A stretch of DNA of 64,000 nt from Amphiscolops sp. MND2022 (Eukaryota): contig OZ076409.1 of NCBI GenBank assembly GCA_964187785.1, positions 10,232,001 through 10,296,000 on the forward strand, read 5' to 3'. Within the stretch, counting starts at the first letter, position 1, and each line of letters starts with the position of its first letter. Made by a program: the position numbers and the translations under genes. This document shows, in pieces, positions 1 through 44,328 of the stretch. The notes under the pieces were generated by a model that was not told where the DNA came from, did not search any database, and worked only from the letters and a program-made list of their open reading frames with translations.

Positions 1-1137
1 GGAATTAGCGTTGACCTTACGTCTTGCTTTAGGATTTTTATTAGGATATTTTAGGTGCCATAGTAAACCAAGTAGATTTGTTCCATTAAGGAAGTACTAA
101 ACAAAGCATAATGTCAACGCGATCTAGTGATTTACCATGATGATATAAATCCAGAACATAAAAATACCATTGCCATTTCTATCATCCTTCCTTACAGTAC
201 AGTTTTCCTTATATAAGAATCATGACTCTTACATCTTTTAAACGCATCGATATAAAAAACTTCATTTGGTTTTCGTTTGAACCAGTATTTCTCGTTTGCG
301 ATTTTACAATTCGCTCCGTAGATGCTACGTATTAAGATTACCTATAGTTGGACAGCGGAATACAATTTTACAATCCGCTCCGTGAGTGCTCCGTACGTAT
401 TAGGATTGCTTATAGCTGAGCAGCAGTAGCAAGCGGAGTGAAAACGAAGAGCGTAGGCGATTCTATTCTCTTTTCATAGCTAGTAAGCGTTGCTAGGGGC
501 AACCAAGCGTAATTCTACTGGTACGAGCTCAGATAATTCCGCCGGCAAGTGACGCTATTGGTCCGTAAAAATAGAAACGCATGTTACTAAACCTAGTTGA
601 GTGACGCTGTCATAACGTTGTAAACATTTACTTAAAATCACTTGACTGCGATTTTAAGTGGATATTTAACAACTACTTTAATATTCGAATACATTTCCAC
701 TCTGTTTTTGTGTGTTCTTTCATTTTAGATCTCATGGACGCCGTTGGGATCTCGGAGTTAAACGTTGTTTTTGTGTTTTCATTTTAGTGTGGAGCGCCAA
801 AATGATCCCGTTTGCAAAATTATTTAGTGCTTAGATTGGAATGGAAAACTCAGAAGATAAAACCGGAAATAAAACGGTGTTGCGTGTGAAAACATTAGAC
901 CGGAAATTTTAGCTAGTTTAAAGTCATTTCTGAAAATCTTCAGTAACGCTTACGTTGAATTCTGTATCTGAAAATTATTCGCACTTATTTAACTGTACTG
1001 TAAGTAGAATTTTTGGTTTGGGTTTGACTAGTTTAACAAAGTTTAAAGGTATTTACTCTGTCCTTGTCCATGTCCTCGGCCGAATCCCGGTATTCCAGAG
1101 CAGCAAGTAAAATTACGACCGGGAGCGGGTCGTGACA
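1..1137 (-). repeat. 3' LTR of element A (partial)
   Basis: Colinear with 14175-15311, about 30 substitutions by manual count (~97% identity); ends GTCGTGACA at 1137. Confidence 0.93.
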
Positions 1138-1917
1138 GGGCCCCTCTTGAAGCAAGAGACAAGGGTAGACCGTGGCAATGCGGGATTTCTTTTTTCATTA
1201 AAACTGAAGGGCGGCTGATGTATTTTCGTACTTGGTGGGGACCACGTCCTCTTCCCGCTTTCATGTATTCAATTTTCTTCTCCTCTTCTTCTAAGTCGAG
1301 TACCATTTTTTCCAGATATTGCATTTCTTCAGGAGAAATCTCGGGCGGCTTGCTTTTCTCGTTCAGGTCATTCAGGGGACTATCAGGACAACGGTTTTTT
1401 TTCGGTAGGGCAGCTACTCTCGGTGCGTAACTACCACGTCCCACAGCCGCAAAGTAATTGCGGTCTTCTATATCTAGGTTGTATGTAGCTTCCAGCTCCA
1501 TTATTGATGGCTCGTTTTTATTCCCCGGCTTGATTGTCTCCGGCGCTCTCTCATTTCCTAGCTGAGGGATGTTGAATTTCTCTTTTAGCGGCATTGTAGG
1601 TTTCAACGTGGAGGTCTGGCATATTGGTGAGTCTGGCTCCTCATAGTAGCTATCGGAGTCCGATATTGAACCTCTTGCGGGGGGCAGATCAAACGAAACT
1701 TTAGGAGCTTTTTCTTTTTGGGAGTAGGTTCCGTTTTCTTTACGTCGCAGTCTGTTTCAAAAGTTGAATCCAGTTCGGCGTCAGTGGATCGCCAAGCCTC
1801 TAGTGATGAGTCGCTTATATTCAATTTTCCGACCATGTTCACGGGCACTGTTTTAATTGGCGTGCTGGTCATTCCTTCATCCGATGAGATGTTAATGTCT
1901 AAGGAGTAGCCGTTCAT
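1043..1917 (-). CDS. Sense-strand 3' accessory ORF(s) of element A, unknown function; runs into the 3' LTR
   Basis: Overlapping ORFs 1603-1917 (ATG start) and 1043-1606, probably one frameshifted gene; basic KKKK patch; no recognisable domain. Confidence 0.45.
1138..1148 (-). promoter_or_regulatory. Candidate polypurine tract of element A
   Basis: Minus strand reads AAGAGGGGCCC immediately before the TGTCA start of the 3' LTR. Confidence 0.55.
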
Positions 1918-2439
1918 TTTCGTAATCGTGCCTAGAGAATTTCTTAAGATTACTTCTTGTTGATGAAAGATCGCGCGTTGAGAATATTCAGAATTTTAGG
2001 CTTGTCAAGCTGCAGATTTGGACGACAAACGAACGTTTTAAGTTCTTTACCTTCGCGAATTCCATTGAAATTCTATTTTTCGCTTTCGTTTCGGTGCGAC
2101 TTAAGTCAGGAAGGGAAAGTTTGTTAACTGCATTGTGATTGGTCGAAACTTGTAGGAAAAGTTTCTAGTTTTACGTTCCGTTTCTTTCTCGGTCGATGAC
2201 GTCTTCGGAACTTCTTGGTGATTTTGTTCACCTGTAGGTCATTTTGGAGACGTTTTGTTTCCACCAATGCCATAATAGGCTTTCACTGAAGTTGAAGATA
2301 AGATGATTTTCCTGGTTACGTAGGGATGACGTTGCTTATTTCTTTTAGGGTGTCTCTTTTTACTCGACGTGATTTCTATTTTGTTGATTTTTTTTCTCTT
2401 TTTAGATTTCGTTGACAGTCGCTATTGTCACTCTTGGTC

Positions 2440-5400
2440 ATGAGTGAAGACGCTGTTCCTCCCGGTGTCTCTGGCTTTCTCAGTGGGCATGAGACTAACT
2501 TCTGCTTCACTGAAGACGACGCTTATCCTTCGGAAACGGAAGTTGTAGTTACTTCTTCAGGTTGGTAAAATCTTTCTGACTTCCTGGGCAATAGGACTAA
2601 TGTTATTTTGGTGATCAGCCTTTTATAGTCTTACCCGTAACTCTGACGCCTCTGAACCAGATCTTGATTTCCAGTAACTCAACCTGGAACTTCCTCGGCT
2701 GTTGTTTCCGCTGCCACTGCGGGTGGGACCTCTGCTACCCCCGTGGGGTTATCTTTGCTGGGTTCTTCTTTGAAGTTGCCTCCAGTGACTTCAGTGCTGG
2801 TTCCTGAGCAGTCCATCAATGATGCTTTGACGACGTTGCTTCCTGCTAATCCTACTACTGAATCTTCAGTAGTTCCGGGCGTTGATGTTTCCTCTGCGGT
2901 TCCTCCTGATTTGTCCGAAGTAGTTCCGGGCAATTTTGATGTCAGTGTGGAGCCTCATGGAAGTGAGGCTGCTACCACCTCCACAGGAGAAGAAAATGCG
3001 GTAGAAGAGGAGAATACGCCAGGCTGTAAGTTGTGTATTTGCATGATTATTTCCTTTTGTTGTTTTTATTATATTTTTTCTTTTTGCCCACTTGTTGGGC
3101 TCTGTTTTCCAGTTTTCATCACGCTTGTGTTGTAGGTTCGAAGGTGTTTCCATTCCGGAAGACGAGCGTGAAGTTCATGGAATCTTCTCCGAAAATAAAA
3201 AGGACAGCACGGGTCCCAGAGCTTGATGTCACCTTTGAGCGGTTGGAGTGGGGCAGAAGACGTATCATTTTCGGCGACTCCTGTGTCACCCGAAATGATG
3301 CAGCTGGGTCGTCAGTTAGCTTCAACGGTAGAAGAGCGTACGGCTCGGCAGATACAGACAGGTGTGTTGTTTGTTTGTGATTGGCCTCCTGTTGATGGTG
3401 TGTAGTACGTTGCGGCGACGTTTGTTTTGGGTATTTCATTTGTTTGATTATTTTTGTGTGTATTATAGTCTTTAGCGAGCTTGTTGAGATAGTGGAGAGT
3501 CACTTTGAGCGCCCGAAGACAAAAAAGTATAGCAGTCGTATTGCATCGTCGGATGCTAGCCTTGAATCCGTTGTTTGCTGATTTCGTGACGGGTTCGGAG
3601 TGTGGAAGTGCAAAGCTCTTCTATTGTCGTATTTGTAGAAGAGAAGTAAAGATGGGCTCAAAAGGGGCAGCTGAGTTTGTTCGTCATTTTGAGTCGAAGA
3701 AGCATTGGGAGCAGGACGTCACGTATCGTGTGCACATGGGTCTCCCTGTGTACAACAAGCTAATGAAGCCCATGGAGCTGGGTGCCCGACAGAGGGACGA
3801 CTTTCTTTCGCGGCCCTTCGTGGATTTGGGCGGGGAGTTTCCTTTCCCTGAGGACATGTTGCCCAAACATTCAAAAGCGTCTTCGAAGGTGCCACTGATG
3901 ACTCTCGTTTCGAGCTTGAGTGATGTGTTACGCAGTGGCGGAGATTTCACGTTAGTCCGTCGCCTGTGGGGCTATTTCCTTGCGTCTCTGGGCGGTCGGG
4001 ATTCGGAATTCACGCTACAGTGGAGTCGTTCAGAGACAGTGGTTAGTACTTTTGTGTAGTTAGTTCATTTAGTGAGTGGTGTTCTGTTGTGTCGCATTTG
4101 CTCCTTTTATTGTAAGCTGCTAGGTAGCCATAAAGGTGTACTGTGGTGTGATTTCGTTCTCTGTTGTTGTTTGTTTTCTCTTCCTTCTTCTTTTTCATTT
4201 GAGTGTTTGTTTTAGTCCGTGTTGTGTCAAGGCCTTGTTCCCCGCGTGTTGCGCGTGATGTTCAAAAATATTGGGCAATTTCGGGAGTATGCTCTACAAT
4301 ACGAGAAGAGTACGGAGGTGGAGCGTTGTTTCGTTCTCTTCTGGGAGGACAATTATTTGAAAAAGGTATGTGTTGGTTGTGAGTCGCTGCTGCAGCGTGT
4401 GCCAACACCAGAGTTGCTGCCCTTGGCACGAGTCGTCTGTAGTCTACCGTCTGGGAAGTTGCCCTTGGCCATAGTTGGCGGAAGTCCGTCCTTAGTCCGT
4501 GTCTTGGGTGACACTCGAGCTGACAGTCGTGTCTTCGTGTCTTACCAGCCTTTCACTAGTGAGATGTTGATTCGTTGTATCCGGCAAGCCTACCAAGACG
4601 TGTTCAGTATGATGGAGGTGACTTCCCTGGTGGATTATACTGTGTTACGCTTGAATACTGCCATTTACGAGGACTGGATGGAGGAGAGAACCATACTGTG
4701 TAAAAGTCTTCGTCAGGGCCACGTGGAATTCGCTGATTTGCGGGAAGTACTGTCAGATCTGATCGAGTTATGGTCCTCAATACGTCCATTTGTTCGATGT
4801 ACTGGTAACCCTGAGGCTAAGGACAAGGCTGAACGGGTGAGTGAAAATTGTTTTTTTCTTCCGATGTGATTGCGGTGTTACGTATTGTCGTATCCTGTTG
4901 TGTATATTTTAGCTGCAGGGGATTGATTGGTTACTAACTGCCGATAAAATGATAACGTATCGATTCGGTCTGCTGAAAGTGATCCTTGATACTTGTGAGT
5001 GTTCTCTTTTTGAGTTGATGGATGGTTTCTTGATTGTTGTTGACTGTGTATTTGTTCGTATCATTGGTTGTTCCTTTCTTTCTTCCCTTTTTTTTGAGTA
5101 TTGGGGTAGGGTTGTTCTTCTGTTGTATACGAATCATGGTGTATGTTTTAGTCCACAACAATTGCCCCAAGTTGCGACAGGGTCAGGCAGATTATGCTTT
5201 CCGTGCTTATGGCGAGTTTTGTAATTTTGTGTATTGCCTGCTCTTGAAAACTCGCAGCACCAGTGGTCTTCCTGAAATTCATGCTTGGGAGTCCTACATG
5301 GATGTCGTGAAGGTCCGAGATTTCGCTGTTATTCCGTGCGATTCCTTTCTTTCCAGTCATGACTTGGGCGAGCAGTTATCCGCAGGCAAGACGAAAGAGT

Positions 5401-6453
5401 ATGTGGCTTTCCGGCTTCATTGTCGACAGTTTGTTGATCGTCTGATCATCATTTTACTGGAAAGCACATATGCACGTTCTGTTATTGCCAAGGGGATGTG
5501 CAGTTTCTGTCCTGAGTTGATGTAGGAAGGTGATGATGTGGCCGTTTTCAGTCTATTTGCGGATTTGTGCCGTATTCTTGTATCCTGTGGTTCGCTGGGT
5601 GTGGACGAAAGTAGTGCAGCTTTGGAGGAACATGCGAGTTTCATTGTGGAAAAACGTGGGTATCATTCCTCGTCAGGGCAGTCTGCTGGTGACATCGTGG
5701 ATGTGGTGCCGTACCTGCTCCGTGATGTTGGATTTTTGTCACGACCACAATTGCTCCGAGTATTCAAGCTGTGTTGTCTTGTCTCGGGGGTGTCTGCCTC
5801 GCGCTATCCTGCCATGTCTCTGGATTTATCTGGAATTGCATTGAGTGTTGCAGACTTTCAGAGCTGTGTGCAACTGGTGCAGTCTTATATATTTAGCGAA
5901 GGATATTCGCATCAGTCCTTCTTCAGTGATCAGACTCTTAAAGTTGTGAAAAAGGCCATCGCAGATGCTGGTAGATTTTTTGGAGCGTCTAACTTCAGTA
6001 TGTGGACAGAGTTTTGCGGGGAGGATGTGGATGCCTTTGTTGCAAAGTATAGTACGCTATTTACTACTTTCCTCGTGGTGCGCCGGAAGAACTTCGATGC
6101 TCGTTATGTGGAGTACAACAAAGCAAATCGGATGTCTCGGTTGTCTGAAAGTGGCGATACAGCTGGTTCGAGTGGTTCCCTGAGTTCTGTGATTCAGCGG
6201 AGGAGGCAAGATACAGGTCCTCCGAGTGTTGTTTCCGTGAAGTCTGGTGGCAGTGAGTCAAGTAATGGCGGAACAAAGTCGGGGTCTAAGTCTGCTACTG
6301 TTTCGTCTAAAGGGAAGCAGCAGAAAAACGTCAGTGGTAATTCGGGTGGTGAAGCTGGTTCATCTAAAGGAAGAAAAGAAAACTGTGCGGGATGCTGATG
6401 ATGATGGCTCTGGTACTCAGCCAAAGCCTAAGAAAGTGTCCAAAGACTGTTGA
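2440..6453 (+). pseudogene. Antisense spliced gene of element A encoding a zinc-finger, hAT-transposase-like protein
   Basis: ATG at 2440. GT-AG introns at 2561-2674, 3026-3135, 3362-3468, 4042-4215, 4837-4912 and 4995-5151; the first and last three join the ORFs exactly in frame. Probable 1-nt indels near 3200 and 3525 and an in-frame TAG at 5523. Contains the motif CRIC-x16-HFESKKH. Confidence 0.82.
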
Positions 6454-6864
6454 TGATTTGATTTCTTGTAGACTTTGATGTAGTTATATTTTTCTTTTAT
6501 TGTCCGCTGATCTCCGTTGTATTAGTCTTTGACTATATAGTTTTAGAGAATCCCGAGAAAAATTGACGTAGCCATTCCGGTTCGGTTTGGTTTGCTGAGT
6601 GTTTTGGCTAGTCTTGAGTTGGACGTGAGTCCTCCGTAGTAGCTGAGTCAAGCATTCGAAAATGAGGATTGACATTAGGATTCGGATTAGGTCGTAAGTT
6701 GTATCTTCCCACTTTTCTAGGATTATATCCAACGACGATACGCGGCAATTGGGGTGTTTTGGGAGGGCTTTGTATCGGCGGTGGGGTCAAAATATATGGG
6801 TTATCACTGACATTTAGATCAAATGAGGTAACGTTGTCGGAGGGTGTTCTATCTCCTTCAGTGT

Positions 6865-6995
6865 TTTCATTTGTGGGTGTTTGAACCATTTCATTTTCCA
6901 TTGTAGTTTCGCCAGTGGTTGTTTTAACCACGTCATTTTCCGTTGTAACTTCGCTTGTGGTTGTTTTAACCACTCCATTTTCCGTTGTGCTGTCG
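6865..6995 (-). repeat. 42-bp coding tandem repeat in the integrase C-terminal tail
   Basis: TTENGVVKTTTSEV / TTENDVVKTTTGET / TMENEMVQTPTNEN. Confidence 0.75.
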
Positions 6996-9900
6996 ACGTT
7001 TCCTGTTGTGTCTGCGATTTCTGTAACTGTAGCTTCTTCGGCAGCGTTTTCTGTGGTATTTCCGAACAGAACTTCTCCGAATTCGGTTTCCCAAGCTTGC
7101 GCGTACCAATCATTGTGGGTTGTTTTAACCTCTGGATCTGGAAGGTAATCTTCCCTTCTGACCGTTACATCAGGTACTCGCTGATTGGGCGCATATAGCC
7201 TTAGGCGAATTCTATGGAGGGTTTGAGTATACCTAGTTCCCGTGCGACAAACGACGTAGTTGTTGTTCGAGAGTACTTTGACTAGTATGTAGGGTCCAGT
7301 CCAAATGCAATCTTTAAAGGCGAATTTCATTGACTGATTGTCTGCCTTCGGATTAAGGACGTAGCAGTAGTCGTTGACTTTGAGCGGTGTAGCCGTTGCT
7401 TTCTTGTCATAGTACTGTTTGTATTTGAGGTAAGACTGCATTAGGTTCTCTTTGGCAGCTTGGTGTATTTCGGCTATTTGTTTCTGTAGTTGGTCTGTTA
7501 GTTCTTCGTTGCTATCTTTTTCCCAGTTAGGTTTCAATCCAAGTTTTATGTCCAAAATGTTGTACGGAATGCGTCCGTGAAACACTGTTGTAGGTTCACA
7601 ACCTAGGCTTTCATGGTAGCTTGTATTGTAATTCATGACTGCAATCTGGACGTATTTGTGCCACATAGAGCGTCGTTCTCCCGTTGATATCTTCAAAGGG
7701 GTTTTCAAAGAAGCATGAGTCCTTTCTAGGATGCCAATTGTTTGGGCGTGTTTCGTCGATGCGTGGCTTATCCGTATATCCAGTGTTTGTGCTATTTGGT
7801 TGACTACTTCTGACCTGAATTGTGATCCTTTATCCGTTAGAATGACGGTCGGTAGATAGCAGTGTCGTGTCATGACGTCTATTATGCATCGTGTGACTGT
7901 TTTTGCTGTCATATCTTGAGTCGGGTAAGCAAAAAGGTAACGCGAAAAAACATCCATCATTGTTATGATGTGTTGGTATCCATTTGAGAAAAGTAGGTTT
8001 GGTAGGATATCTACTTCTAGACAGTCTTCTGGTCCCATTGTGAATTCAGTGTTGCTTAGCATTTTGGGACGTATCTGTCTCGTGTCAATTCTTTTATTGG
8101 CAATGCAGTCCTGACAACTGGTTACCCAAGCTCTGATTTTGCGTGCAAGACACGGGAAGTAGTATTTCGTTCTGCATTCTTGTATCATTTTGGTGATTCC
8201 TGGGTGTTTATTTGTTTTTCCATGTAGAGTGGCCAAGAGTTCTGGGACTAGGTGTTTTGGAATTATAATTTGGTTATGGGTGACAGATCCGTCTTCTCCG
8301 TAGTATTTTCGCATCAGAACTCCATCTTTCATTATGATTCTTTCTTCGTGGCGTAATAGGTTTCGTCCTCGTGGTTCAGTTTTGAGAAGGTGTTTGTCAT
8401 ATTCTTCGTGTGAGATCCGTTGTTTCAGTGATTTGAGGAGAGGGTCTGCATCTTGCTCGTTTCTGATCCGTGCATTTTCCTTAATTGCACCGAAGGAGTA
8501 GACTGCGGAGTTGAGTGGTATCTTGATGACTTCGGTTACTTTTGTTGATAGTTCTCTCTCATGTTCGTCTAGGGCACGTCGCTTGCTGAGTGCTTTTCGG
8601 GCGAAAAATTCCTGTTCAGATTCATCTTCTTCGTCTGGTAGGAACAAAAGCTGTTCCTCGTCAGCTACATCTGATGATTGTAGGTTAACCTCGATTGGGG
8701 ACGTTAGGATGTCGTCTCGTAGTTTATATTGTACCTTTTCTTTCGGTGTAAGTTCAAGTCTTGAGAGAAAATATGCTGCCGTGTTTTGGGAGCCTGCTAC
8801 GTGCATAATTCGGAACTTGAATTGTAATACATATTCACAGGCATTCCAGAGTGCAGGGGGTGTCGTTTTTGTCTGGAAGAATCTAGTTACTGAGCGGTTG
8901 TCCGTTAAGACCAGCGTTGGAATTGTTGTTTCCCATAGTATGTGACTGTATTCGAGGAAAGCATGGTAGATTGCGAAGAATTCCTTGCAATAGATGGACA
9001 TTTCCAGTTGTGCAGGTGAAAAAACTCGTGATCCGAACGCTACTGGTGCGAAGGTTTTTCGTTTGGAGAGTATTTTGCGTTCGTCGTTCTCCTCAATCAT
9101 GAGGGCGTAGCCTGATGCACGAAAGCTTGCATCCGTCATTAGAACGTACTGTTTTCCTGCTATGGGCTGTCGGAGTGCGAGTCCACAAGCTTCCGCTAAA
9201 CTGGCGTTAATTTCTTTAAAGTTATCGACAAGTTCTTCTGAAATTCTGATCTTGGAGTCTCCTTTGAGAAGTTCGTACATGCCGAAGAGTTTTTCTGACA
9301 AGCGCGGTATGTAATTGCGGTAATAGTTAACAAAGCCAATGTATTTCTGAACTTGTTTTTTGGATTTGGAGAAGCGGACTTTGGAGAGGAAATTTTTGAC
9401 CTTTTGATCTTGCGGGGCTACTCCGTCGGGGGTGATGGTTCGGCCAAGAAATTCGATTTGGGTTTCTCCAAAGTGACATTTTTCGATGGTTAGTTTGAGT
9501 CCTGCCTTTCTAATGCACTTGAAGACTCTGCTCTGATGTTCTTTATAAGCTGTTCCGTTGTATTTGCGGCGATGCCAATGTCATCTACATATTGTGCACA
9601 TTGGTCTGCTTTGATGACTGAATCCAGATACTCACGCATAAAGCTCGAAAAAGCTGAAAGAGCTCTGCTTAGTCCTTGTGCCAGGCGACGGTAGGCGAAC
9701 GTCCTACTAGCAAAATTGAAAGCAAGTAATTCTACTGACCTTTGATCTGCCATTTGGAGGCAGTGGTACGCCTGGGAGCAGTCAAGCTTGCAGAATAGTT
9801 TTTTCCCTGCTAGGTGTTGTGCCGCGTCTGAGAGGGTGCTGACAGGGTGGTTGTTGTTGATGTAGTCATCTGCTATGAGTGCATTGATTTTGCGCAGATC

Positions 9901-11827
9901 CACCAGCAGTCTCAGCTTGCCGTTGTGTTTCCGCTGTGCAAATATAGGACTGGCGTACTTGGAGAAGGGGAGTGTCGTGATGATACCGTATCGGTGCATG
10001 AGGGCCAGTTCCACAGTTAGTTCTTCTTTGAGGTTGATGGGGACTGGTAGGCTTTGTGTTTAGACTGGTTTGTCGTCTTGTGGTGTTAGACTGACTTTGA
10101 ATTGTGTGTTCATCCCGATGTGTAGCCGGTGTCGGGCGAAGATGTCGTTGAAATCGACAATGGTGTCCTCAAGGTTTTCACGGTCTTTGTTCGCAATCAG
10201 TGAATCTGTCCATTTGAACATGGATAGAAATTTGTTTCGAGACTCTTCGTTTTCGGTTGGGTCAAGTTTTTCTAACTCGGCCAGGTCTCGCAGTTCTTTC
10301 AAGATTCGCTTTTGTATGGGCGAATGTTCCTGTTCGTTGCCTGGGTGTTCTGGGGTTGGAAACCAGAATTTCTCTTCATTATCGTCGGGCCGCTCTACTT
10401 GCATTGGTGCATTAATGTACGTAACCACATCGTCATGTTCGGTGAGAAGATTCAGGGCGGCTATGTCAACTGGACGGATCATCTTCGTTTCTTCGGGTTT
10501 CAGGATTTGCAGTTCGGCCATTTTGGTGTCAGTGGCTATTGTGTATGGGAAGTCTGAGTTATTGGCGATTTTGATTGGTATCTTTTTATCCCTGGCTGTG
10601 GTAATTGCTGGGGCCACTATTACCTTCGCGCATTCGTCAAATTGTGGTAAAGGTTGTATTGTGCCAGTTATTGAGTGTTCGGTACTCACAGGGATTGTTG
10701 CGTAGATGATTCGGGTAGAGTGTGCTGGAATTGTATGCTTGGCTTCGGTCTTTATTGTGATGGGCTTGGGATTGCACTTTTGTCTTTCATCTGTGAGCGC
10801 CGTCGTGATTTGGATTTTAGGAAAGTCGATGGTTCCTTGTGCCGTGTCGAGAAATGCGGCGTGTTTACGTAGGAACGCTAATCCGATTATGGGGAATGAC
10901 GTTTGATTCATGATGATGAATGTTTCTTCGAAGGTGTAGGCCCCTATTTTGAAACGTAGGGTGTACGTGGCGAGTGGTTGTTCTAATTCAGCATTGGCAT
11001 ACTGCACTTTGAAAGGGGGTGGGGGTGCCTTGTTGACGATGCACTGGCTAGCGTGCTGTCGGAGTTTTTCAGCGTCCCTTTCACTAATAGCGTTAAAGTA
11101 CGCACCTGAGTCGACTAGAGCGTCGATTTTGATTGTGTTGAATTCGACTGGTAGAAAAAGCATTCGTTTTTTCTTCTTGAGAGCGATGGAAGACATTAAC
11201 AGATTGTAGTCGTCATCTTTGTCGTGTTGGATGAATTCTTTGATGGCATCTAGATCTTCAGGCAGTTTTGAGGGACATTCCGTGATTTCTACGTCGTCGT
11301 CCATCAGTGCTGTGACTGGCGCAGTTTTTGGAGGGGTTACTGGAGGATCAGCATTTTCTCGTTTTCGTCTTTCTTGATGTGCCCATATTGTTTTATCTTC
11401 AATGCAGATTATATTTTCTTCATCTATCGGTGTGGACGTGATGGTGGCGGGTACTGTTGGGGATGGTGTTGTTCTTTTCAGGATCGGTGACGGCGGTGAT
11501 GGTAGGTTTGTGATCCCCGTAGATTGAGCTTGAGGGTTTGAGACTTGGATTTTGAAGGATAGTTTATTTGTATCATAGATAGTTGGTTGATCCCAAGGGT
11601 CACATCTGTAGTCTCTGTCATTTATATAAATTCGGTCTGTTTTTGATTCCGGCAACGGTCTTTTGAGTGTCGCATAGTTATCGGGTGACTCCGTTATCCA
11701 CTGGGGTAGTGGCGTTGGGTCGTCTGAGTGTCTGGCGTTATGCCTGACTATCATGCCTACGTTCCAACGGCGTTGCCAGTCTTGAGTTGGTTCTTCATTA
11801 CATTCGGTTAAAAAATCTTCCTCATAC

Positions 11828-11907
11828 CTGTTTGGGGGGTCCTCTATCGTGTACGCCCTCGCGTCTACTTTTTCCCCAAATCGTAGGCGCGGCGATTTCA
11901 GTTTTTT
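11828..11907 (-). promoter_or_regulatory. Programmed -1 frameshift signal (A AAA AAC plus stem/pseudoknot)
   Basis: Heptamer 11907-11901 directly precedes the gag TGA; the -1 frame is open into the 564-aa protease ORF; a GC-rich stem follows, and its loop TTTGGGG is complementary to downstream CCCCAAA. Confidence 0.8.
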
Positions 11908-13307
11908 GACTGGGAGGACAGTGTGGGTACAGGTTGTTCGCTGATTTTGTTGGTTGGAATGGTGAATTCATGTTTCTTCCTTCTGGGGTCATTTGCTGCA
12001 TTGGTTCCGTTCCAACAGTTCTCAGTTTTGTGCATCTTGCCACATCTATCACACTTGGGCTTGGGTGCTTCGTTTTGGGCTGGGTCTTTTGTGTTTGTTT
12101 TGGCGATATTGTAGCGCTCTCGTTGAAGTCGGCGACACTGTGCTTTATAGTGGCCATATTTGCCACAGTGAAAGCAATGACCTCGTTGTTGTTGGTCTTT
12201 TTTATCGTCCGTCACTACGGCGTCCACTGTGATGAGTGGGACTAGGGTTGTTTCGTCGGGCGCACCTAGTCCGTTTAATCTCATTTCCCTCTCAAGATGC
12301 AAAACTACGTCAGTGTAGGGCTTATCTTCCAAATACGCTCTGTTGAGGATCTTCTTGACGTGATCCGGCATTTTGGCGTAGATTGCTTTATCAATGAATC
12401 TTTGTGCTTCTGAGCCGAATGCTTCTTTTGCAGTTTTTTGCAGGGCATCAAGGAACTCATGGAGTTTCTGTTTAGTGGGGTCAAAATGCAGCGCATCCCA
12501 CTCGCATCTCGCTTTAGCACATGATTGGAAATCACCAAAGCGACGTTTGAATGCCGTTATGACTTCTTCTAGGTTGTCTTTTTTAGTGTCATCTAGATTA
12601 CAATACGCTTGTAGCGCGTTTCCTCGTAGGAGTGAATGGAAGTAGTTGATCTTTTGTATCTCAGTTAGGTGAGGGTACATTTTGATATTATTTCGGAATA
12701 GGTCCTGAAAAAGTTCAAACTTTTCGGACTTACCATCGAAGACTGGAAGCGAAGCAGTGAGTGCTTTCGGCATCGGAAGTAGGTTGGTAGCTGAAAATGT
12801 TTGCGGTTGTGGCGCGAACAGTATTTTAGATGTTGAAGGACGGTCTTTTGTCTGCTCGTTGGATGCACGTTGTTGTTTCGATCTTTTCGTGGGTTGGTTG
12901 GTAGAGTCATTGAGGACTCCTGTCACCATGTTACGACTATTTATCGGTGTTGTTTTAGAGTTAGCCGCATTGTGAGTTTTGACTGGGGTAGACGTCCTTG
13001 CTACGGAAACATTCTCCGTTTCAGAGTCAGAGTCTTGAACATTCACGTGGCCAGTTTGTTTCTTGTTTAAAGGCGCTATCAGTTTAAGCATTTCCTTTTG
13101 ATTTTCCGCAAGTATTTTAGTCAGATCAGACATAATCTCCTTTCTTAGTGACGTTTTAATCTCAGCCAAGCCCTCTGGTTCTATCCTAGGAATCTTGCTG
13201 GAACTTGCTAAAAGGGTTTCAGGCGGAAAGTTTTCGGTTACAGAAGTTTCGAAATCACCAGGGACTAAACCAGCTACGATTATCTTTTTCTGGCTTCTAG
13301 TTGTCAT
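11898..13307 (-). CDS. gag: Gag of element A (469 aa from the first ATG), two zinc knuckles
   Basis: LPVFDGKSEKF...LLRGNAL capsid-like motif; CFHCGKYGHYKAQC and CDRCGKMHKTENC. Confidence 0.9.
   Translation of the reverse strand: MTTRSQKKIIVAGLVPGDFETSVTENFPPETLLASSSKIPRIEPEGLAEIKTSLRKEIMSDLTKILAENQKEMLKLIAPLNKKQTGHVNVQDSDSETENVSVARTSTPVKTHNAANSKTTPINSRNMVTGVLNDSTNQPTKRSKQQRASNEQTKDRPSTSKILFAPQPQTFSATNLLPMPKALTASLPVFDGKSEKFELFQDLFRNNIKMYPHLTEIQKINYFHSLLRGNALQAYCNLDDTKKDNLEEVITAFKRRFGDFQSCAKARCEWDALHFDPTKQKLHEFLDALQKTAKEAFGSEAQRFIDKAIYAKMPDHVKKILNRAYLEDKPYTDVVLHLEREMRLNGLGAPDETTLVPLITVDAVVTDDKKDQQQRGHCFHCGKYGHYKAQCRRLQRERYNIAKTNTKDPAQNEAPKPKCDRCGKMHKTENCWNGTNAANDPRRKKHEFTIPTNKISEQPVPTLSSQSKN
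12914..12928 (-). promoter_or_regulatory. Primer-binding site of element A (tRNA-Leu-like)
   Basis: TGGTGACAGGAGTCC abuts the LTR end and is identical in element C; the first 13 nt differ at one position from the typical tRNA-Leu(CAG) PBS TGGTGTCAGGAGT (from memory). Confidence 0.75.
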
Positions 13308-15311
13308 TTCGGTTGAGAGAGAGAGAGAAAGTATCTTTGGAAAAGTTGAATTCTTCGAAGAGTTTAGTTTCCTTTCAAACACGTTATGATAACGGAACAG
13401 AGCTAATTATTACAAAGCAGGTCAAAAACTAACTGAATTACATGTATGTTTTACATATTTATACCTTCCCAGCATCATTTGTTCCTCACCTAAAAATTCC
13501 TAGGTATCACAAAAATCGGGTTTGTTCAACAAAAAGTGCTAATGATTCATATTATTTCAGTCCCGCGTCATAAAATCAGGTATCAAAATTCCTAGTTGCG
13601 TCAGCGTTCCGTAAAACTTTGTTGAAATCATTTTTGTTCAGGCGATTCATTTCCTGTTTGAGTTTCAAAAATGCGGCAAAATAGAAGTCTAGCTGGCATT
13701 TTCATTAGCGTAGGCACCCCGGCGTGATCAATTAGTCAGCAATCAGGTTGGGAAACTGAAGTTTGAAGCAAAAGAATGACACTCAAAAATGGCGACGGAA
13801 TCGCGACGGAATGAATTAACTTGGAAGCGGAAGGAAAATATGGAAATTTGGTATAAAAGAACAAACGATGCTGAAACGATAATCCCAAATTCAAACATAT
13901 GAATTACCTGCTAATGGCATACTACATCATTTATACTGAACACAAATTAAGTCCGAACGGGACTTTAACGGAATGCAACAATGATTATACTGCTAATTAG
14001 ATGAGCGCAACATATTCGTAGTATTAAGTGGAAAGCAACTTCAACATTTTACACAATAATCGTGAAATTTGTCAGAACATAACCATAGTTTGGGTCAAAA
14101 CATAATCATAGTTTGGTCATTAGCCTGATTGTTGTTATCACAAAATACAACTGTTATTACTGACTTGAAAACAAGGAATTAGCGTTGACCTTACGTCTTG
14201 CATTAGGATTATTATTAAGATATTTTAGGTGCCATAGTAAACCAAGTAGATTTGTTCCATTAAGGAAGTACTAAACAAAGCATAATGTCAACGCGATCTA
14301 GTGATTTACCATGATGATATAAATCCAGAACATAAAAATACCATTGCAATTTCTATCATCCTTCCTTACAGTACAGTTTTCCTTATATAAGAATCATAAC
14401 TCTTAAATCTTTTAAACGCATCGATTTAAAAAACTTCATTTGGTTTTCGTTTGAACCAGTATTTCTCATTTGCGATTTTACAATTCGCTCCGTAGATGCT
14501 ACGTATTAAGATTACCTATAGTTGGACAGCGGAATACAATTTTACAATCCGCTCCGTAAGTGCTCCGTACGTATTAAGATTGCATATAGCTGAGCAGCAG
14601 TAGCAAGCGGAGTGAAAACGGAGAGCGTAGGCGATTCTATTCTCTTTTCTAAGCTAGTAAGCGTTGCTAGGGGCAACCAAGCGTAATTCTACTGGTACGA
14701 GCTCAGATTATTCCGCCGGCAAGTGACGCTATTGGTCCGTAAAAATAGAAACGCCTGTTACTAAGCCTAGTTGAGTGACGCTGTCATAACGTTGTAAACA
14801 TTTACTTAAAATCACTTGACTGCGATTTTAAGTGGATATTTAACAACTACTTTAATATTGGAATACATTTCCACTCTGTTTTTGTATGTTCTTTCATTTT
14901 AGATCTCATGGACTCCGTTGGGATCTCGGAGTTAAACGTTGTTTTTGTGTTTTCATTTTAGTGTGGAGCGCCAAAATGATCCCGTTTGCAAAATTATTTA
15001 GTGTTTAGATTGGAATGGAAAACTCAGAAGATAAAACCGGAAATAAAGCGGTGTTGCGTGTGAAAACATTAGACCGGAAGTTTTAGCTAGTTTAAAGTCA
15101 TTTCTTAAAATCTTCCGTAACGCTTACGTTGAATTCTGTATCTGAAAATTATTCGCACTTATTTAACTGTACTGTAAGTAGAATTTTTGGTTTGGTTTTG
15201 ACTAGTTTAACAAAGTTTAAAGGTATTTACTCTGTCCTTGTCCATGTCCTCTGCCGAATCCCGGTATTGCAGAGCAGCAAGTAAAATTACAACCGGGAGC
15301 GGGTCGTGACA
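12929..15311 (-). repeat. 5' LTR of element A (~2.38 kb)
   Basis: Termini TGTTACGAC...GTCGTGACA form an imperfect inverted repeat; PBS is adjacent; the right half matches 1-1137. Confidence 0.82.
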
Positions 15312-15983
15312 GTACCAGTTAGATTTCATGATGCCTCTTGTAAACAGCTTACATCCACTTCTCAATGTTTTTTGTCTCATTTTTCGAAACATTATAATGA
15401 AAGAACGATTCAAAATGCTTCTAACAGTTGTTTGATTCGTATCGTATTTATTTCGAAATCGAATGCTGCAGATGAAATTGTAACCTTCATGTGATACTGG
15501 ATCTCTATAACTTGTGAACTGTCTGAAGACAAAACAATAAACTGGCATTTCTTCAAAAATTAGTCATCGTAAAAAAATGATCATAAGTTCTAAGGCTGTC
15601 ATTCAGGAATTGCTTGAAATTAATATTTGATATCGGGTACCAGTTTCAAATTTCTGTCAACTCATCAGCGCCCAGTTTCAAAAATATTACTTTCATCTGA
15701 GAGCATAGGTTATCTCGAAATGTTGCTGGATGATAGGTGGTTCAGGAGCGTGTTCAAGATGTGCCAAATGCTAAAATTTTGCATTCAATGTTAACCAAAG
15801 GAATGCGAATCACCAATTTTGAAGCTGGGACCCAGACAGTTTATGGTCTGGTTTGAGTTGATCATGATCACATTCAAAACGGCATTAAAAAGTTTCTTTC
15901 GTAAGTTTCTTTCGCATTCAATCCTTTTATTTCCAACATTTCTGTACCAATTTAAAATACAATACACTTACTTCAAAAAACCC

Positions 15984-16260: not shown

Positions 16261-19200
16261 AAGTGACACCAATAACAATAAATACTAATGATGTTATCAC
16301 CAAATGTCAGCAAATTCGTTTAGCTCTTGGCTCTAACATAGACTCGGGCTTTAAAATTGTTGTATGTTAGACGCAGCTTCTGTGCATTGCTTTATACAGT
16401 ATTGTTAATAAAGCATTGTTAATAAAGTAAATTGTCTAAGGTTATGTTGTTTTTCCGAATCATAGTAAGAAACCATAAGATTTGAAAATATCGGGTCGTC
16501 TGATGGAAGGTAATTTTTTGTTTTAGTTGGTGTTATAGGTATTGTGGATGTGAAAGTGAATATCGATGAATGTAGTATAAAATTTGTCATTCAAAGGAAA
16601 GTATGTTCTTTAAGAGGAAGTTGTATATTTAGGACCTGAGTATGGATTGAAAAATACGATTCTGTCATATGCTAAAGTTGGAAAGTTGGGATCTTTTTTC
16701 AAATTCTATATCAGTGACTTCAAATGGAGCAGGAGTGGTTGTATGTTCTCTTTTTGAGACTTGGAAAACTGGATAAGGGTTTAAGCCTTGAAACTTGACT
16801 TTTACTTCAAATTCTACTTCTACGTTAGAAGTTTGAAGTCGTGTAAGTTCTGTTTCTTTTTGTTTATTCGAAATGAATCGTTAGTTGTGATAAAACGTTC
16901 TGTAAGAATGGGAAAGCGTGGTTCGTGTTTTGGATCATATGTAGTACAACCATCAACTCGTATTGGATAACCGGCTAAGTTAGGAGTTGGATGTCGAGAA
17001 TGTTCTGCAGTTATTTTTTATCAATAATTACCAATTATCAAGGTTAAAATATGATTGTGGAACCAAATCTGAAGATTGAGTATCAGAAGATAGAGGATGT
17101 GCGTGTAGTCTTGCAAGTCGTAATACAAAATTGCTTAAGAGCGCAGAAAAAATGGTTGTTGAAGTGTCTGTACTTAACCTTCGTGAAGGAAGGTTTCGGA
17201 GGTTATATTTATGATGAGGAATAAAAAGTGCGCTTGTAGATTCTTGTGATGGTGTAAATTCAGAAGAATCGTCTTAAAGATTTGATAGTAGTGTAGATGA
17301 TTTTCAAAGAGGTTTTAGTGGAGTATATGTTTTTGAAGTTGTTCTGTTTGATTCCGATGGGAGTTGTAATAAAGGTATTAGTGTATAATCAGTATCAGGA
17401 ATGTGTACACGATTTAGTTGTGGTTGAAGTCTAACAGTTTTGATAACTGAGGGCGGTTTATAGATTACATATCGTTCAACATGTTCTGGGTTTGGTAAAT
17501 GTGTTAAAGGAGTGTGAGTTGGTGATGGTTGAGATTGAGAACGTGTAGTGCTAGCAATTTCTGATATGGGTGGTCTACTTGCATGAGAAATAGACGTAGA
17601 TGATACAGAAGAGGTGTCAATAATTTGTGATCGTGGCATTTTAGAAGGCCTTACAGGAGTTACTTTATGAGTGTGTGTTGTAGTAGTAGTGGTTTGAAAT
17701 TCAGAATTACAGTATAGACTTGGAGCAGAAGAAGATGTACCAGAAGAAGAATCCAGGATTATAGTTTTGTGGAATAGAATTGAGTTCATATATGGCTATG
17801 TTTCAGTGTGACCAACTTTCATTTATCTCCTCTTCAGTGTGACCAACTTTCATTGAGCTTCTCAAGGTTGTGAATGATTGTTTCAAATCTTTGAAGATGA
17901 TATGAAGAGACGATAATCCTTTTTTGGTTGGTGTCTGAGGTTATAATGAGTTTTAATGTTTCGGTCAACTGACGTATTAGGTAACATAGATTGGTTTTGA
18001 GATGGATGGCGTGAATGTGGATGGCGCGAGGAGGTAATTCGTTTTGATGAGTTTTACTTAGTTGTTTGAGAGACGAGTTTTCATTTGTCATGTTAGAGGA
18101 ATTATCCTTTGAGAAGAGATTTGTGGAAGATGTAAGAAGTGGTAATAAAAGGTTACGAAAAATGAGGGGAAGTAGGATCATTTTGGGATGAGTTTTTGTC
18201 GGATAGGGACTCATCAGAATTAAAAGGGGAAGATCTTGTGAAAGGAGTTCATATGTAACATCGGACAATCTGTCGAGTGTTTTGTATAGGACAATCCGAA
18301 GGGGTTTGATTTGTCAGAAAAACGAAAGTGAGAAAAATTACGTTTGAGTACAAAAGTGCCAAGAGGAAGTGGTTCACCTTCATGTTAGGTTTTTGTGATA
18401 TATGCGTGAGAATTTAGTTTCCAAGTGTATTTTCGTGTACTGTAGAGTAAATTTGTAACAATGCAGTTTCCACTGCAAGGAACCATTGGATAAGAGGTTT
18501 TGAAAGAGTTTTGTAAAAGAAGGGATTTAAGTCCATTTTATCATAATGTGAGTTTTCAGGCAGTTGGGAGCGATTATGTGAAATTATTGTTTTGGATGTG
18601 TTTTGATTGAGGTTTAAATCAAAGGTTCGGGGAATTCGTGGTCGTGTGTGGAAAACAATTTTATGAGAGGAAACAGTGAGTTCTGAAAGAGGTTGTGAAT
18701 TGTGTGCGTCTTTACGAGAAATGCCCAATCTTTAGAAGTAACGTGGAGGAACATACAGAGATGAGTGCCATGATTTCTGTTTTGTACTTCGACAAGACCA
18801 TTTGTCCAAGGAGAATAAGCTGTTTGAGATAATTTCTGATTCCCATGAGTGTACAAAGTTGTGTCATATCGGTATTTATTTATTCTGATCCGCGATCAGT
18901 AACAAGGTAATTTGGTTGACCAGTATTTGTATAACAAAGATGTGAATTTTTTTTACATCGGTTTAAGCATTATTTGATTTGATGGGGACTGTTACAACAA
19001 AATGAGTGAAAGCGTCTATTTTTACGTGAATATAAAGTTTGTGTTGTGAAGGAGGATTAATAGGTTCTTTTGTATCCATAGAGATTCTATAATTGAAGGA
19101 AGGAGCATGTTCAGAAAAAGATTGTGTAGGAGCAGTCCGTATTTCCATATTGAAATGTTTATTGCGTTGATATTCAGAACAATCGTGTACGAAAATTGAT

Positions 19201-21308
19201 AACCATTTTTCAAGATAAGGTATAAAATTTCATTGAAAGAAAGTATTATGGGTGATTTTAATACCAGCGTGGCGTGGGAGTGTTCACGTAGTTTGTTAAA
19301 GACAGTTTTGAATAGTCTAATAGGAAGGCAGATTCTAATAGTACTTTGCATTGTATTTGGAAGTGGATTGGGATGTATTGAAGAAGACCAGGTAAATTTT
19401 TGTGTATAAACTAACGAGGATTGTGGTATCATCTATAAAAAGTTGTGAGAATCGTTTAAAATAGGCTTGGAGAAAAAGAGTGCCAATTATCAAGGGTTTA
19501 GGAATTTCAGGCTGGTCATTATGAGGTAAGCAAGAGCAGACTGATCTGAGAACAGGATCTTGAGATTGTTGTTGTTGAACGGTCTTAAGGTCCAAGGAAC
19601 AGTCATCGGGAAGAAAGAACCTTGAAAATATATTAATTTTTTTTAAAAAAAGGATGTAACATAAAAGGGTATGATTTGTGAATAGTGTGTAGAAGGTTGA
19701 GAGTGTGTTTTTAAATCCATTGCAGAATTAGATTCTGGTTTTGTAATGGGTTTTGGTTTGGTTATGGTGGAGAAATTTTCTTCATGTAGAGTTTTGGCAT
19801 TTAAAAAAGTTGAATCAGGTTTGGGAAATCTAGAATATATATGTTCTTCATCATCGCTTGTAATATCAGTATCATTGAGTGAAAGAGATTGTTGATGAAG
19901 AGTTTTGTTGTGTTTTTTTGGGTGTTTTGAAATTGGATTGGAAAGGAGTAACAGATTTAAAAGTAAAAGGAGGTTGGAGGTTTAACAACAAAATATTCAA
20001 TTGTCACAACAAATTGTCAATTATGCGTATCGAAAATTGGGCTAAATACCAAAATCGGCAAGAACTGGATGGGAATCATGTTTTTGATGTGGTATTATTT
20101 TTTCATGTTTAATCAAGTAATGTACGGGTTTCATTGTGTTGTTTTGTAGTATTGCAAAGTCAATTTGAGGTGGAAGTTAATTGTGTTTCAATTGGTTTAG
20201 TTGTAATTCGTCTTTTGTGTAGGAAGAACGACTTAACATATCGGCAACAGAATGATTTTTGCCAGGCGTGTGGAATATTTTAAATTTAGAGAACTTTATT
20301 ATTTGATTTGAGCTCTATAAAATGGTGGACTGAGATTTCCTTTTTTGTAAAACAATGTAAAAGAGGTTTTTGATCAGTGATGATATGAATCGGTTGTGGA
20401 GATCCAATAATGATAAATTCAATAATATGAAGGGCATGTACTTTACCAAGAAATTCACAGTCCAGTGTGGAAATGTGTGTTGTTGTGGATTCGATATGCG
20501 AGAACTGTGACTTTCATTTTGTTTTCTTCGTTGAGTTGGAAGGTGACAGCGCCTAATTCATTAAGCGAAGCGTCTACTGTAATAAAAATGGATGTTTTGT
20601 ATTAGGAATGGTGAGTTCTGTGCTCGACGTAAGAGAGGATTTCATGTATTCAAGAAGGATTTCATGTTTTTTATTTCAAGAAATAAAAAGACGTTCATGT
20701 TCTTCGGTCCAATTCCTTGCGAGGTTTTCATGTAAAAGATCACAGAATGGCTTGAGATTTATGTGAAGTTTTTCTATAAATTTGGTGTAGAAACTGAGTG
20801 CGCCAATGAAATTTATTAAACTGACTCTTACAGTGGGGGCAGGAACTTTGTGAACAGCTGCAATTTTGGAATCTTTGGGTTTAATTGTATTGTAACCTAT
20901 TTCATGTCCAAGAATTTTAACTTTAAGGATCATGAAAAAGGATTTTTCGGGAGCGAGTTTAAGTTGGTTTTTCGTACCAATAAGGTGTAATTGTTCAATA
21001 AGTTGAAACATATGTTTCTTTGAGTTTGATAGAATTAAAATGTCATCTATATGAACAAGAGCAAAACCTTTTTCTATAGGAGTTTTAAAGAAATTTGACT
21101 TTTGAAAGAAATTTGGAAGTCCTTTAAGTCCAAAAAAGCCACGTATAAAAGCAAAGAGTTTATCACCAGATGAAAAACTGGATAGGTTTATGGTTTCGTC
21201 GTCTAGAGGAGTATGTGCATAGGCATACATGAGGTTTTTTAATTTTTGTTTGCGTGTATCACATTGTTCTGTATTGGAGTTAAGGTGTCGACCATCTAAT
21301 ACACATTT
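15984..21308 (-). mobile_element. Element B: degenerate, internally deleted and 5'-truncated family 2 copy
   Basis: Starts TGAGCTGTTAAA like the D LTR; then env N-terminus (YLPSDDP..LMVSYYD), an ORF2 homolog (PNPEHVERYVIYK), and integrase and RT fragments closely similar to D; many stops and frameshifts. Confidence 0.88.
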
Positions 21309-26790: not shown

Positions 26791-27139
26791 AGAAAGTCAC
26801 TCTTGAGTTATACACCATTCATTATTGTATGAAATTAACTATAAAATGATTGTCAAATATATACATTCAACAACTCACAACAAGTCACACTATTCCAGGA
26901 AGTCACAGTTCCTCATAGATCATTCCTGCGACAACTGTCATAAAACATTCAATAGTAAATAAGGTAACAGAGGGAAAGTCAACTCGATGCAGTCAAAAAT
27001 TGCGCTAACGACGGGGATCAAAATTTCGACTGATGAAATTCTCAGAGAAAACGTCACGGCGAAAAGATATTTCATGGAAGTATAAGTTGAACAGCGATTA
27101 TTTGGATTATTCTATCGTCCTTTATCTACCATAAGTTTA

Positions 27140-27352
27140 AAATCTGCACTGAAATGATAATGAAGCGGTCATAGAGATCTTGTCTGATAAAGTAAGTTAG
27201 TTTTGGATATGCACTGAAAAGATAATGAAGCGGTCAAAGGGACCTTGTCTGATCATAATGGTAAGTTTCAGATATGGACTGAAACGATAATGAAGCGGTC
27301 AAAGGGACCATGTCTGATGAAATAAGTAAGTTTTAGATCTGCACTGAAATGA
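27140..27352. repeat. 65-bp tandem repeat, ~3.3 copies
   Basis: G(C/G)ACTGAAA at 27146, 27211, 27276 and 27341; the first three are followed by GATAATGAAGCGGTCA. Confidence 0.85.
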
Positions 27353-40111: not shown

Positions 40112-40320
40112 TTTAAAGTTAAAGTACTATAAATTACACTAACGAGTGGATTTGTCAACTTTAGTTGAAGAGTTTTTGAAGACGGTTATTATGAGAGAAG
40201 TATTATTGGGCTGAGGAAGGTGAATTTCGGCAAGAGTTTCGAGTGGTGGAGGAGTAGCAATTGTGAAGAAATAGTAGACAAGTGTACTGAAAGAGAGTTA
40301 CAGAAAAACTGAAAGAGTGT

Positions 40321-44220: not shown

Positions 44221-44328
44221 TTGTTGAAGTGTTCTCAACAGGTTATCTTTGAGATAACTTGTTATGGGTTATATTTCATTCAACCGGAGTGACTAGTTTT
44301 GAGTGAGCCAACAGATAGAATGACTAGA

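Follow-up and report, generated by a model that had tools for sequence, protein, structure and literature searches.

A predicted antisense gene with six introns in a Ty3/gypsy-type retrotransposon of Amphiscolops

Introduction

Can a long terminal repeat (LTR) retrotransposon carry an intron-containing gene of its own? This question is raised by a stretch of 64,000 nucleotides (nt) from Amphiscolops sp. MND2022 (assembly GCA_964187785.1, contig OZ076409.1, 10,232,001-10,296,000, forward strand), hereafter called the window. A Ty3/gypsy-type element occupies the minus strand of the window at 1-15312, and a predicted gene with seven coding exons and six GT-AG introns lies inside it on the plus strand at 2440-6453, converging tail to tail with pol. 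A sequence-only reading of the window had described about seven antisense exons between the pol stop codon and the 3' LTR, joined in frame into a protein of roughly 1000 amino acids (aa) whose nature it did not recognise, and had taken the gene to be a permanent cargo of the element. As checks, it had named the search for an intact spliced open reading frame (ORF) among genome-wide copies and the ratio of nonsynonymous to synonymous substitution rates (dN/dS, or omega) between copies; the absence of the region from most family copies was to speak against the idea.

Extra genes are the least understood part of retrotransposons, and a large, six-intron gene that is clearly under selection offers an unusually clean case. 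We know of no antisense extra gene of retrotransposons with a known function. The analysis described below leads us to regard the gene as an accessory gene belonging to the retrotransposon itself, with a probability of roughly 0.88.

Results

Spliced reading frame in genomic copies

A DNA search of the 1.07-gigabase (Gb) assembly with 2440-6453 gave 1227 first-look candidates, of which 37 were scored, and 42 matches were listed. Among the matches listed, 31 near-full-length copies at 90-100% identity held the gene in the same place and orientation. In this and the other genome searches, thousands of candidates were narrowed down to the 40-113 best-scoring matches from which the counts were taken. 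The 30 loci returned (L001-L030, the window's own among them) were aligned, and the gene model in window coordinates (Table 1) was fitted to them.

GT..AG ends were found at 178 of the 180 introns (30 copies with six introns each). Introns 1, 4, 5 and 6, which had been proposed from the window, held up in this comparison, their GT/AG ends being kept in nearly all copies and the ORF pieces being joined in frame. The remaining two were fixed by comparing the copies, which bore out the count of about seven exons and six introns. For intron 2, the AG at 3134-3135 was conserved and that at 3110-3111 was not. For intron 3, an acceptor at 3479, modelled from the window copy alone, was rejected because many stop codons followed from it in other copies. 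The proposed end of the gene at 6453 coincided with the stop codon of the family.

A fully open spliced ORF of 1092-1126 aa, with ATG, stop codon and GT..AG at every intron, was present in 11 of the 30 copies. One further copy was short only of the terminal stop codon, and four had a single stop codon. The window copy carries four lesions, all of them private: one additional base near 3234, the loss of five bases after 3538, TAG at 5523-5525 and one additional base near 6374. With three frameshifts and one nonsense codon, this copy of the gene is dead. The expected continuous protein of about 1000 aa was thus recovered from the 11 intact copies, although the window copy itself does not read through. 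Without splicing, plus-strand ORFs reached no more than 468-486 aa in the three intact copies that were checked; on the minus strand, the longest ORF across the gene region measured 108-180 aa in the 30 copies.

Diversity among the 30 copies was 0.09-0.10 in the putative introns versus 0.02-0.06 in most exon stretches. In the 11 intact copies, all differences in exon length were multiples of three (225 or 228 nt for exon 3; 1301 or 1307 nt for exon 7), and the intron lengths varied freely.

Selection on the spliced frame

dN/dS was calculated by the Nei-Gojobori method for 12 pairs of intact copies, taken between one subfamily (L002, L004 and L012) and the other (L021, L022, L023 and L025). 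The mean value in the spliced frame was 0.236 (per-exon values in Table 1), whereas the same alignment columns gave 1.15 and 1.50 in the shifted plus frames; the minus frames over these columns gave 1.22, 0.31 and 1.41. The synonymous rate (dS) was 0.13-0.16 and was near the intron divergence of the same pairs (0.09-0.145). The 3' end of pol had a dN/dS of 0.17 in these pairs. The rate comparison that had been proposed as a check came out in favour of the gene: the spliced frame is under purifying selection. Such selection, together with exon indels in threes and drifting intron lengths, can hardly be accounted for without removal of the introns from a plus-strand messenger RNA.

These values also bear on the idea that the antisense RNA itself, as double-stranded RNA or as a small-RNA precursor, tunes the element and that the reading frame is incidental. 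Non-coding antisense transcripts are on record for micropia and TART, and a double-stranded RNA role has been proposed for antisense ORF transcripts, according to the available part of PMC7264820. An incidental frame, however, would not be found uninterrupted across 3.3 kb in 11 of 30 copies, nor would it combine an omega of 0.24 against 1.2-1.5 in shifted frames with exon indels in multiples of three. Furthermore, the gene does not overlap pol, so that base pairing between its RNA and the genomic RNA would be confined to the non-coding tail of the latter. We regard an RNA-only role as very improbable.

Same exon structure in a distant family

Part of exon 7 was used as the query in an exhaustive protein search against clusters at 50% identity, which yielded 239 clusters at an expect value (E) of 1e-3 or below and 154 at 1e-10 or below, with 28-88% identity. 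None of these relatives, all of them ORFs of exon size on ENA contigs, exceeded 443 aa. Exons 4 and 5 likewise had relatives of exon size that lacked Pfam domains (44 and 28, respectively); the exon 5 query found them only among ORFs of similar length and none in longer proteins. The homologous ORFs lost conservation exactly at the predicted donors, where a Val codon (GT) comes next. Scanning of metagenome contigs gave one 26-residue match at 50% identity, which was taken as chance, and scanning of viral contigs gave no match to the gene product.

Searches of the same genome with the relatives P0039 and P0010 gave 95 listed matches of 8054 first-look candidates and 113 of 6573, respectively, and 86 of the 95 and 88 of the 113 were without a stop codon; because the ranking follows the score, open copies are favoured in both lists. 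In the P0039-type family (12 loci returned), the gene converges on a minus-strand integrase ORF. GT-AG introns were found at the same codons as in the window family, two exons had exactly the same lengths (621 and 82 nt), and a partial spliced ORF from part of exon 4 to exon 7 was open in 11 of the 12 loci. Exon variants again differed by multiples of three (492/498 and 618/621 nt), and the introns measured 120-121 and 131-140 nt. Protein identity between the two families was 54% for exon 4, 42% for exon 5 and 35% for exon 7, with 62.7% for the integrase part.

From the window copy, which alone does not read through, it might be argued that there is no gene but a fortuitous set of ORFs and GT-AG pairs on a strand rich in T and G. 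The open spliced frames of other copies, the structure of the second family and the dN/dS values refute this explanation, and we give it practically no weight.

The window also contains a decayed distant relative of the gene at 27751-29649 (Table 1). It belongs to a second, older broken element of the same broad group, whose pol lies at 30427-35569 on the minus strand.

Diverged gene versions beside a near-constant pol

A DNA search with the pol part 6611-9580 gave 5705 candidates, and the 40 matches listed had 93-100% identity. A gene match lay within about 260 nt on the expected side in 14 of the 40, eight being of the window family and six of the P0010 type. The latter six were 39-86% identical to P0010, which itself is 40% identical to the window exon 7 piece. 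When six further pol neighbours were retrieved, an exon 7 homologue was present in each on the strand expected, in four as a single open frame of 423-463 aa and in two split by a frameshift. Their products shared 44-53% aa identity with the window family and fell into at least three types, 43-58% identical among themselves. The gene was consequently found beside all 20 of the pol copies examined among the 40 listed, and 12 of these 20 combined a pol of 93-95% DNA identity with a gene that had diverged strongly.

Nucleotide likeness to the window ended at about 6558, approximately 50 nt past the pol stop codon, in four of the six retrieved neighbours and at 6538 in a fifth. Between the two subfamilies of the window family, DNA identity was 92-93% for the gene, 90-92% for the pol end, about 81% for the spacer upstream of the gene and 61% for the region of a third ORF, ORF3 (Table 1), so that the window family appears to be mosaic as well. 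Since faster evolution alone cannot give such divergence at an omega of 0.24, the simplest reading is that recombination between co-existing lineages joined near-identical pol genes to diverged genes. The antisense gene appears to be a variable module of the element population.

The condition under which the permanent-cargo idea was to fall, namely absence of the region from most family copies, did not arise among the pol copies examined. The gene behaves as a fixed part of the element: it has the same place and orientation in 31 copies, it recurs in a family only 35-54% identical, and it accompanies pol throughout the sample. A passenger, that is, a host gene or a part of one captured once and multiplied without serving the element, would agree with the established capture of cellular sequences by retroelements (PMC7264820, in the portion available) and with the lack of relatives of the protein among known proteins of elements or viruses. 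A passenger would hardly show purifying selection during lineage divergence at an omega of 0.24, similar to the 0.17 of the pol 3' end, nor would the same exon structure be expected in so distant a family or the gene beside 20 of 20 pol copies. In addition, a captured messenger RNA would be intronless, and a sense-oriented capture would lose its introns at the next cycle. We consider a passenger quite improbable.

Predicted protein

The product of about 1100 aa begins with a Ser/Thr/Pro/Val-rich acidic N-terminus, which is encoded by exons 1-3 and contains a variable 17-aa repeat. This N-terminus is predicted to be disordered; after the finger described below come a predicted part of mixed alpha/beta type, a large domain of helices and a basic tail. 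Exon 4 encodes C-x2-C-x16-H-x5-H, with the Cys codons at 3625-3627 and 3634-3636 and the His codons at 3685-3687 and 3703-3705. The motif was kept in both families and in most of 34 aligned sequences, with the two His nearly invariant. Two Cys and two His in conserved spacing are those of a C2H2-type finger; no curated C2H2 model matched above threshold, and the sub-threshold Pfam matches of exon 4 were zf-C2H2_ZN292 in 10 of the 34 members (best E 0.023) and jaz, zf-met and KIN17 in one to three members.

Pfam searches of the exon products at E up to 0.01 gave no match, including none to bZIP or SMC, and raising the limit to E 5 for the exon 5 and exon 7 alignments brought up nothing recurrent. 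TRP28 (Transposase_28, PF04195) was not matched at E up to 5 with exons 4, 5 and 7 or at E up to 0.01 with exons 2 and 3. Profiles compared with PDB sequences returned nothing meaningful: no match for exon 5, galectin-10 for exon 4 (E 0.3) and two rows for exon 7 (E 0.25-0.4).

Structures were modelled for single exons. The exon 7 model was all-helical and confident for residues 10-210 (mean predicted local distance difference test score, pLDDT, 78.5). Its fold search gave a best Foldseek E of 0.7 and a best VIA-align Z of 5.5, mostly to single long helices. The exon 5 model was poor (pLDDT 51.9), with the strand and helix order b-b-b-a-b-a-b-a, and its fold search gave no significant match (best Foldseek E 0.006; best VIA-align Z 4.9). 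The ESM Atlas offered no usable lead for the exon 7 part (best 0.80) or for exon 5. The cargo that could not be recognised from the window thus remained without a Pfam, PDB-sequence or fold match.

The sub-threshold Foldseek list of exon 5 was rich in RNase H-like folds, a lead only at E 0.006-0.05, template modelling (TM) scores of 0.13-0.27 and a poor model. It bears on a possible descent of the gene from a hAT-like DNA-transposon transposase (finger, RNase H-like core and helical C-terminal part), which would make the product a second DNA-handling enzyme or a targeting factor. The spacing of the finger fits the BED type, the exon 5 model has the strand and helix order given above, its sub-threshold rows include human immunodeficiency virus (HIV) integrase cores, pox resolvases, RuvC and, at rank 41, Hermes, and exon 7 is all helical. 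Against this descent stand the poor model with its low scores (VIA-align Z at most 4.9), the lack of any match to zf-BED or hAT dimerisation even at E up to 5, the lack of terminal inverted repeats around the gene and an acidic triad that could not be placed. A transposase origin seems unlikely to us, and an accessory gene of the retrotransposon remains the preferred explanation.

Anatomy of the host element

The element at 1-15312 is a Ty3/gypsy-type LTR retrotransposon. It has long direct terminal repeats starting with TG, followed by gag and then by protease, reverse transcriptase, RNase H and integrase domains in this order in Pfam searches. The place of the antisense gene, between the pol stop codon and the 3' LTR, agrees with the initial description. 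In a self-comparison of the window, 1-1138 matched 14175-15312 at 97.45%, corresponding to the LTR copies. The repeat extends to the left of the window and into gag, positions -1100 to 1138 corresponding to 13073-15312 over at least 2241 nt at 97.4%. The LTR at the window start is common to a second element copy, in a tandem element-LTR-element array. Because of this array, a target-site duplication is not readable, and because the repeat continues from the LTR as far as gag, a single insertion is not necessarily dated by the two LTR copies. Near the LTRs no primer binding site was apparent, and the inner LTR end was not located. The window pol is damaged by an in-frame stop codon at 10060-10062 and a frameshift near 9490-9580.

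A nested DNA transposon was considered as the carrier of the gene and rejected, as no inverted repeats were found around the gene in the region 1100-6700.

ORF3 encodes a hydrophilic product of about 290 aa from MNGYSL with a KKKK run; in the window copy a frameshift interrupts it near 1700. In 17 of the 30 copies this region held an open minus-strand frame that measured 304-347 aa from stop to stop, and the product had no Pfam match. In two loci (L002 and L020, first 1500 nt), the ORF3 region was replaced or interrupted by other sequence, which in L002 is a gag-like ORF of a different element.

In 29 of the 30 copies, the spacer from which ORF3 and the antisense gene diverge contained a perfect TGACGTCA palindrome; two or more CCAAT/ATTGG words were likewise present in 29 of the 30. 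The former is a putative cyclic AMP response element (CRE), and the latter are putative CCAAT boxes. The spacer of the window copy is short by about 80 nt. A conserved T-rich tract followed by TAG at 2403-2405, 34 nt upstream of the ATG, may be the acceptor of an intron in the 5' untranslated region.

Table 1 Positions of the element parts, of the predicted exons and introns of the antisense gene, and of a relative of the gene in the window.
Feature	Position	Strand	Remarks
3' LTR	1-1138	minus	cut by window start; begins TGTCAC at about 1137; preceded by purine run AAGAGGGG
ORF3 (sense-strand third ORF, begins MNGYSL)	1043-1917	minus	between antisense gene and 3' LTR, runs into LTR
Spacer from which ORF3 and antisense gene diverge	1918-2439		about 520 nt; putative internal, possibly bidirectional, promoter
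Exon 1	2440-2560	plus	ATG in 30/30 copies; donor CAG/GTTGGT in 30/30; omega within 0.18-0.24
Intron 1	2561-2674	plus	GT..AG in 30/30; retention gives in-frame stop in 11/11 intact copies
Exon 2	2675-3025	plus	Ser/Thr/Pro/Val-rich, acidic; 51-nt unit in variable number (351, 402 or 453 nt); omega 0.59
Intron 2	3026-3135	plus	donor GTAAGT, acceptor TGTAG/G; 102-122 nt among copies
Exon 3	3136-3361	plus	225 nt in 23/30 copies; one additional base near 3234 in window copy; omega 0.38
Intron 3	3362-3468	plus	donor CAG/GTGTGT or GTGAGT; acceptor TATTATAG/G; retention always shifts frame (11 intact copies)
Exon 4	3469-4041	plus	zinc-finger-like motif; 5 nt missing after 3538 in window copy; omega 0.13
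Intron 4	4042-4215	plus	conserved GT/AG; conservation of homologous ORFs ends exactly at donor
Exon 5	4216-4836	plus	621 nt, identical length in distant family; omega within 0.18-0.24
Intron 5	4837-4912	plus	conserved GT/AG; retention gives in-frame stop in 11/11 intact copies
Exon 6	4913-4994	plus	82 nt, identical length in distant family; omega within 0.18-0.24
Intron 6	4995-5151	plus	conserved GT/AG; retention gives in-frame stop in 11/11 intact copies
Exon 7	5152-6453	plus	all-helical domain (model) and Ser/Gly/Lys-rich basic tail; family stop TGA at 6451-6453; omega within 0.18-0.24
Spacer between converging stop codons of gene and pol	6454-6607		likeness to elements with other gene version ends at about 6558
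pol	6608-11967	minus	Pfam Asp_protease, RVT_1 (weak), RT_RNaseH, Integrase_H2C2 and rve, in order
gag	11898-13307	minus	DUF1759 match; two CCHC-like knuckles
5' LTR part matching 1-1138	14175 to about 15312	minus	repeat match
Decayed distant relative (exon 5 and exon 7 parts)	27751-29649	plus	27-50% aa identity; converges on minus-strand pol

Other features of the window

Another Ty3/gypsy element lies at 38990-52537 on the minus strand, with gag and reverse transcriptase at 47055-50726 and integrase at 45151-46833. Downstream, a 725-aa ORF at 40324-42498 matched Pfam Monjiviricetes_fusion (E 1e-20), an envelope-like protein of the negative-strand RNA virus type; the ORFs at 38993-40126 and 50951-52537 had no match. 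Taken with the DUF1759 match of gag, the fusion glycoprotein ORF suggests that the host is an invertebrate animal. The region 16500-20000 showed a guanine-cytosine (GC) skew of 0.4-0.49 over several kb at a GC content of 0.33-0.37, with broken retroelement-like ORFs on the minus strand. Tandem arrays were found at 57921-58109 (period 19/38, about 10 copies) and 27132-27349 (period 65, 3.4 copies).

Discussion

Very probably, selection has maintained an intron-containing antisense gene in this element while its lineages diverged deeply, and the gene has been exchanged between those lineages. Its transcription would be separate and would most likely start in the spacer of about 520 nt, where the gene stands head to head with ORF3; we infer this separate transcription from the selection on the frame and from the conserved spacer with its promoter-like motifs. 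The plus-strand transcript would be spliced and translated into a nuclear nucleic-acid-binding factor. Such a factor would be needed by the element for its expression or spread, much as has been proposed for plant antisense ORFs and retroviral accessory genes; we rate this role, nuclear nucleic-acid binding included, as possible at rather less than even odds. In the genomic RNA of the element the introns are antisense; they would not be recognised by splicing and would be copied into every new insertion. Judging from how splicing and retrotransposition proceed, the introns would persist because of this orientation.

Several points weigh against this explanation. The splice junctions and the putative start site of the gene are predictions from sequence. 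No TATA-like word occurs in the spacer, and neither AATAAA nor ATTAAA occurs on the plus strand within about 950 nt past the gene stop codon. Retention of intron 2 would leave the frame unbroken in up to 7 of the 11 intact copies, and for this reason intron 2 rests on its splice signals and its higher divergence. The low dN/dS of 0.31 in one minus frame tells against the ratio when it is taken alone; this value is expected, because that frame shares its third positions with the coding frame. No ORF on the minus strand over the gene region exceeds 180 aa. For dN/dS, copies had been picked for being intact, and the second family was represented by its top-scoring exon 7 matches with open frames. 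The count of the gene beside pol covers half of the 40 matches listed. As regards function, neither sequence nor modelled structure places the protein in any known family.

A more tentative proposal is that the gene serves as a fast-diversifying specificity module, which is swapped on a near-identical gag-pol, always at one breakpoint some 50 nt beyond the pol stop codon; we hold this to be rather unlikely. If it is true, a zinc-finger protein acting as a counter-measure to host silencing, or as a private activator matched to its own element, would fit the swapping pattern. The gene would then be an animal-retrotransposon analogue of a retroviral accessory gene, engaged in an arms race and with its introns preserved by orientation.

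With thousands of candidate copies in a 1.07-Gb genome, the family offers natural chimeras for asking what use the gene is to the element, and it would provide a concrete case of orientation letting a retroelement keep introns. There is also a consequence for annotation: gene finders will call such copies host genes, and exon-sized pieces already stand nameless in public protein collections.

Antisense extra ORFs between pol and the 3' LTR have been described for maize Grande (gene23), rice RIRE2, Retand of Silene and other plants (TRP28) and Phaseolus PvRetro13, according to the available parts of PMC7264820 and PMC11963269. In the same material, gene23 of Grande has its own promoter upstream of the gene, and the products of plant antisense ORFs (aORFs) are thought to be nuclear DNA-binding regulators. 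As far as these sources extend, the present gene resembles the plant aORFs in place, in orientation and in its presence in most family copies. As in the class termed aORF-3R, the gene at 2440-6453 (plus strand) lies between the pol stop codon at 6608 (minus strand) and the LTR at 1138; it was found beside all 20 copies examined of the 40 listed, and it is conserved like other genes of the element (omega 0.24 versus 0.17 for pol). The plant aORFs, however, are described as plain ORFs, the word "intron" being absent from the main texts of PMC7264820 and PMC11963269. The gene described here differs in its six predicted introns, its product of about 1100 aa, the lack of a TRP28 or SMC match and its animal host. 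Near-identical pol genes with widely diverged gene versions are likewise not mentioned for plant aORFs in the available parts of the two papers.

Antisense transcripts that carry introns occur in Drosophila TART and micropia (PMC1636488 and PMC7264820, available parts). The two antisense RNAs of micropia are without protein-coding capacity, and the antisense transcripts of TART, a non-LTR element, are non-coding (PMC7264820, available part). In contrast, the spliced frame is what is conserved in the present element.

HBZ of human T-cell leukaemia virus type 1 (HTLV-1) is a spliced antisense protein-coding gene that regulates its element, and it encodes a small bZIP protein, has one intron and starts in the 3' LTR. 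The antisense promoter of HTLV is located in the 3' LTR (PMC7264820, available part). Unlike in HBZ, no bZIP was found here, the sense-strand ORF3 separates the gene from the LTR, and an internal promoter is likely. Outside plants, brtn was reportedly described by Zhao et al. in 2011 (Virology 417:248) as an additional antisense gene of Boty-like gypsy elements in Botrytis cinerea. Like brtn, the present gene is an extra gene that runs antisense to a Ty3/gypsy element of a non-plant host; its product is a large orphan protein with one C2H2-type finger. In the open-access library searched, we found no multi-intron antisense gene described in an animal LTR retrotransposon. Taken together, antisense extra genes as such are already known, and the features that set the predicted gene reported here apart are its animal host, its size and six introns, its orphan protein and its diversification on a near-constant pol.

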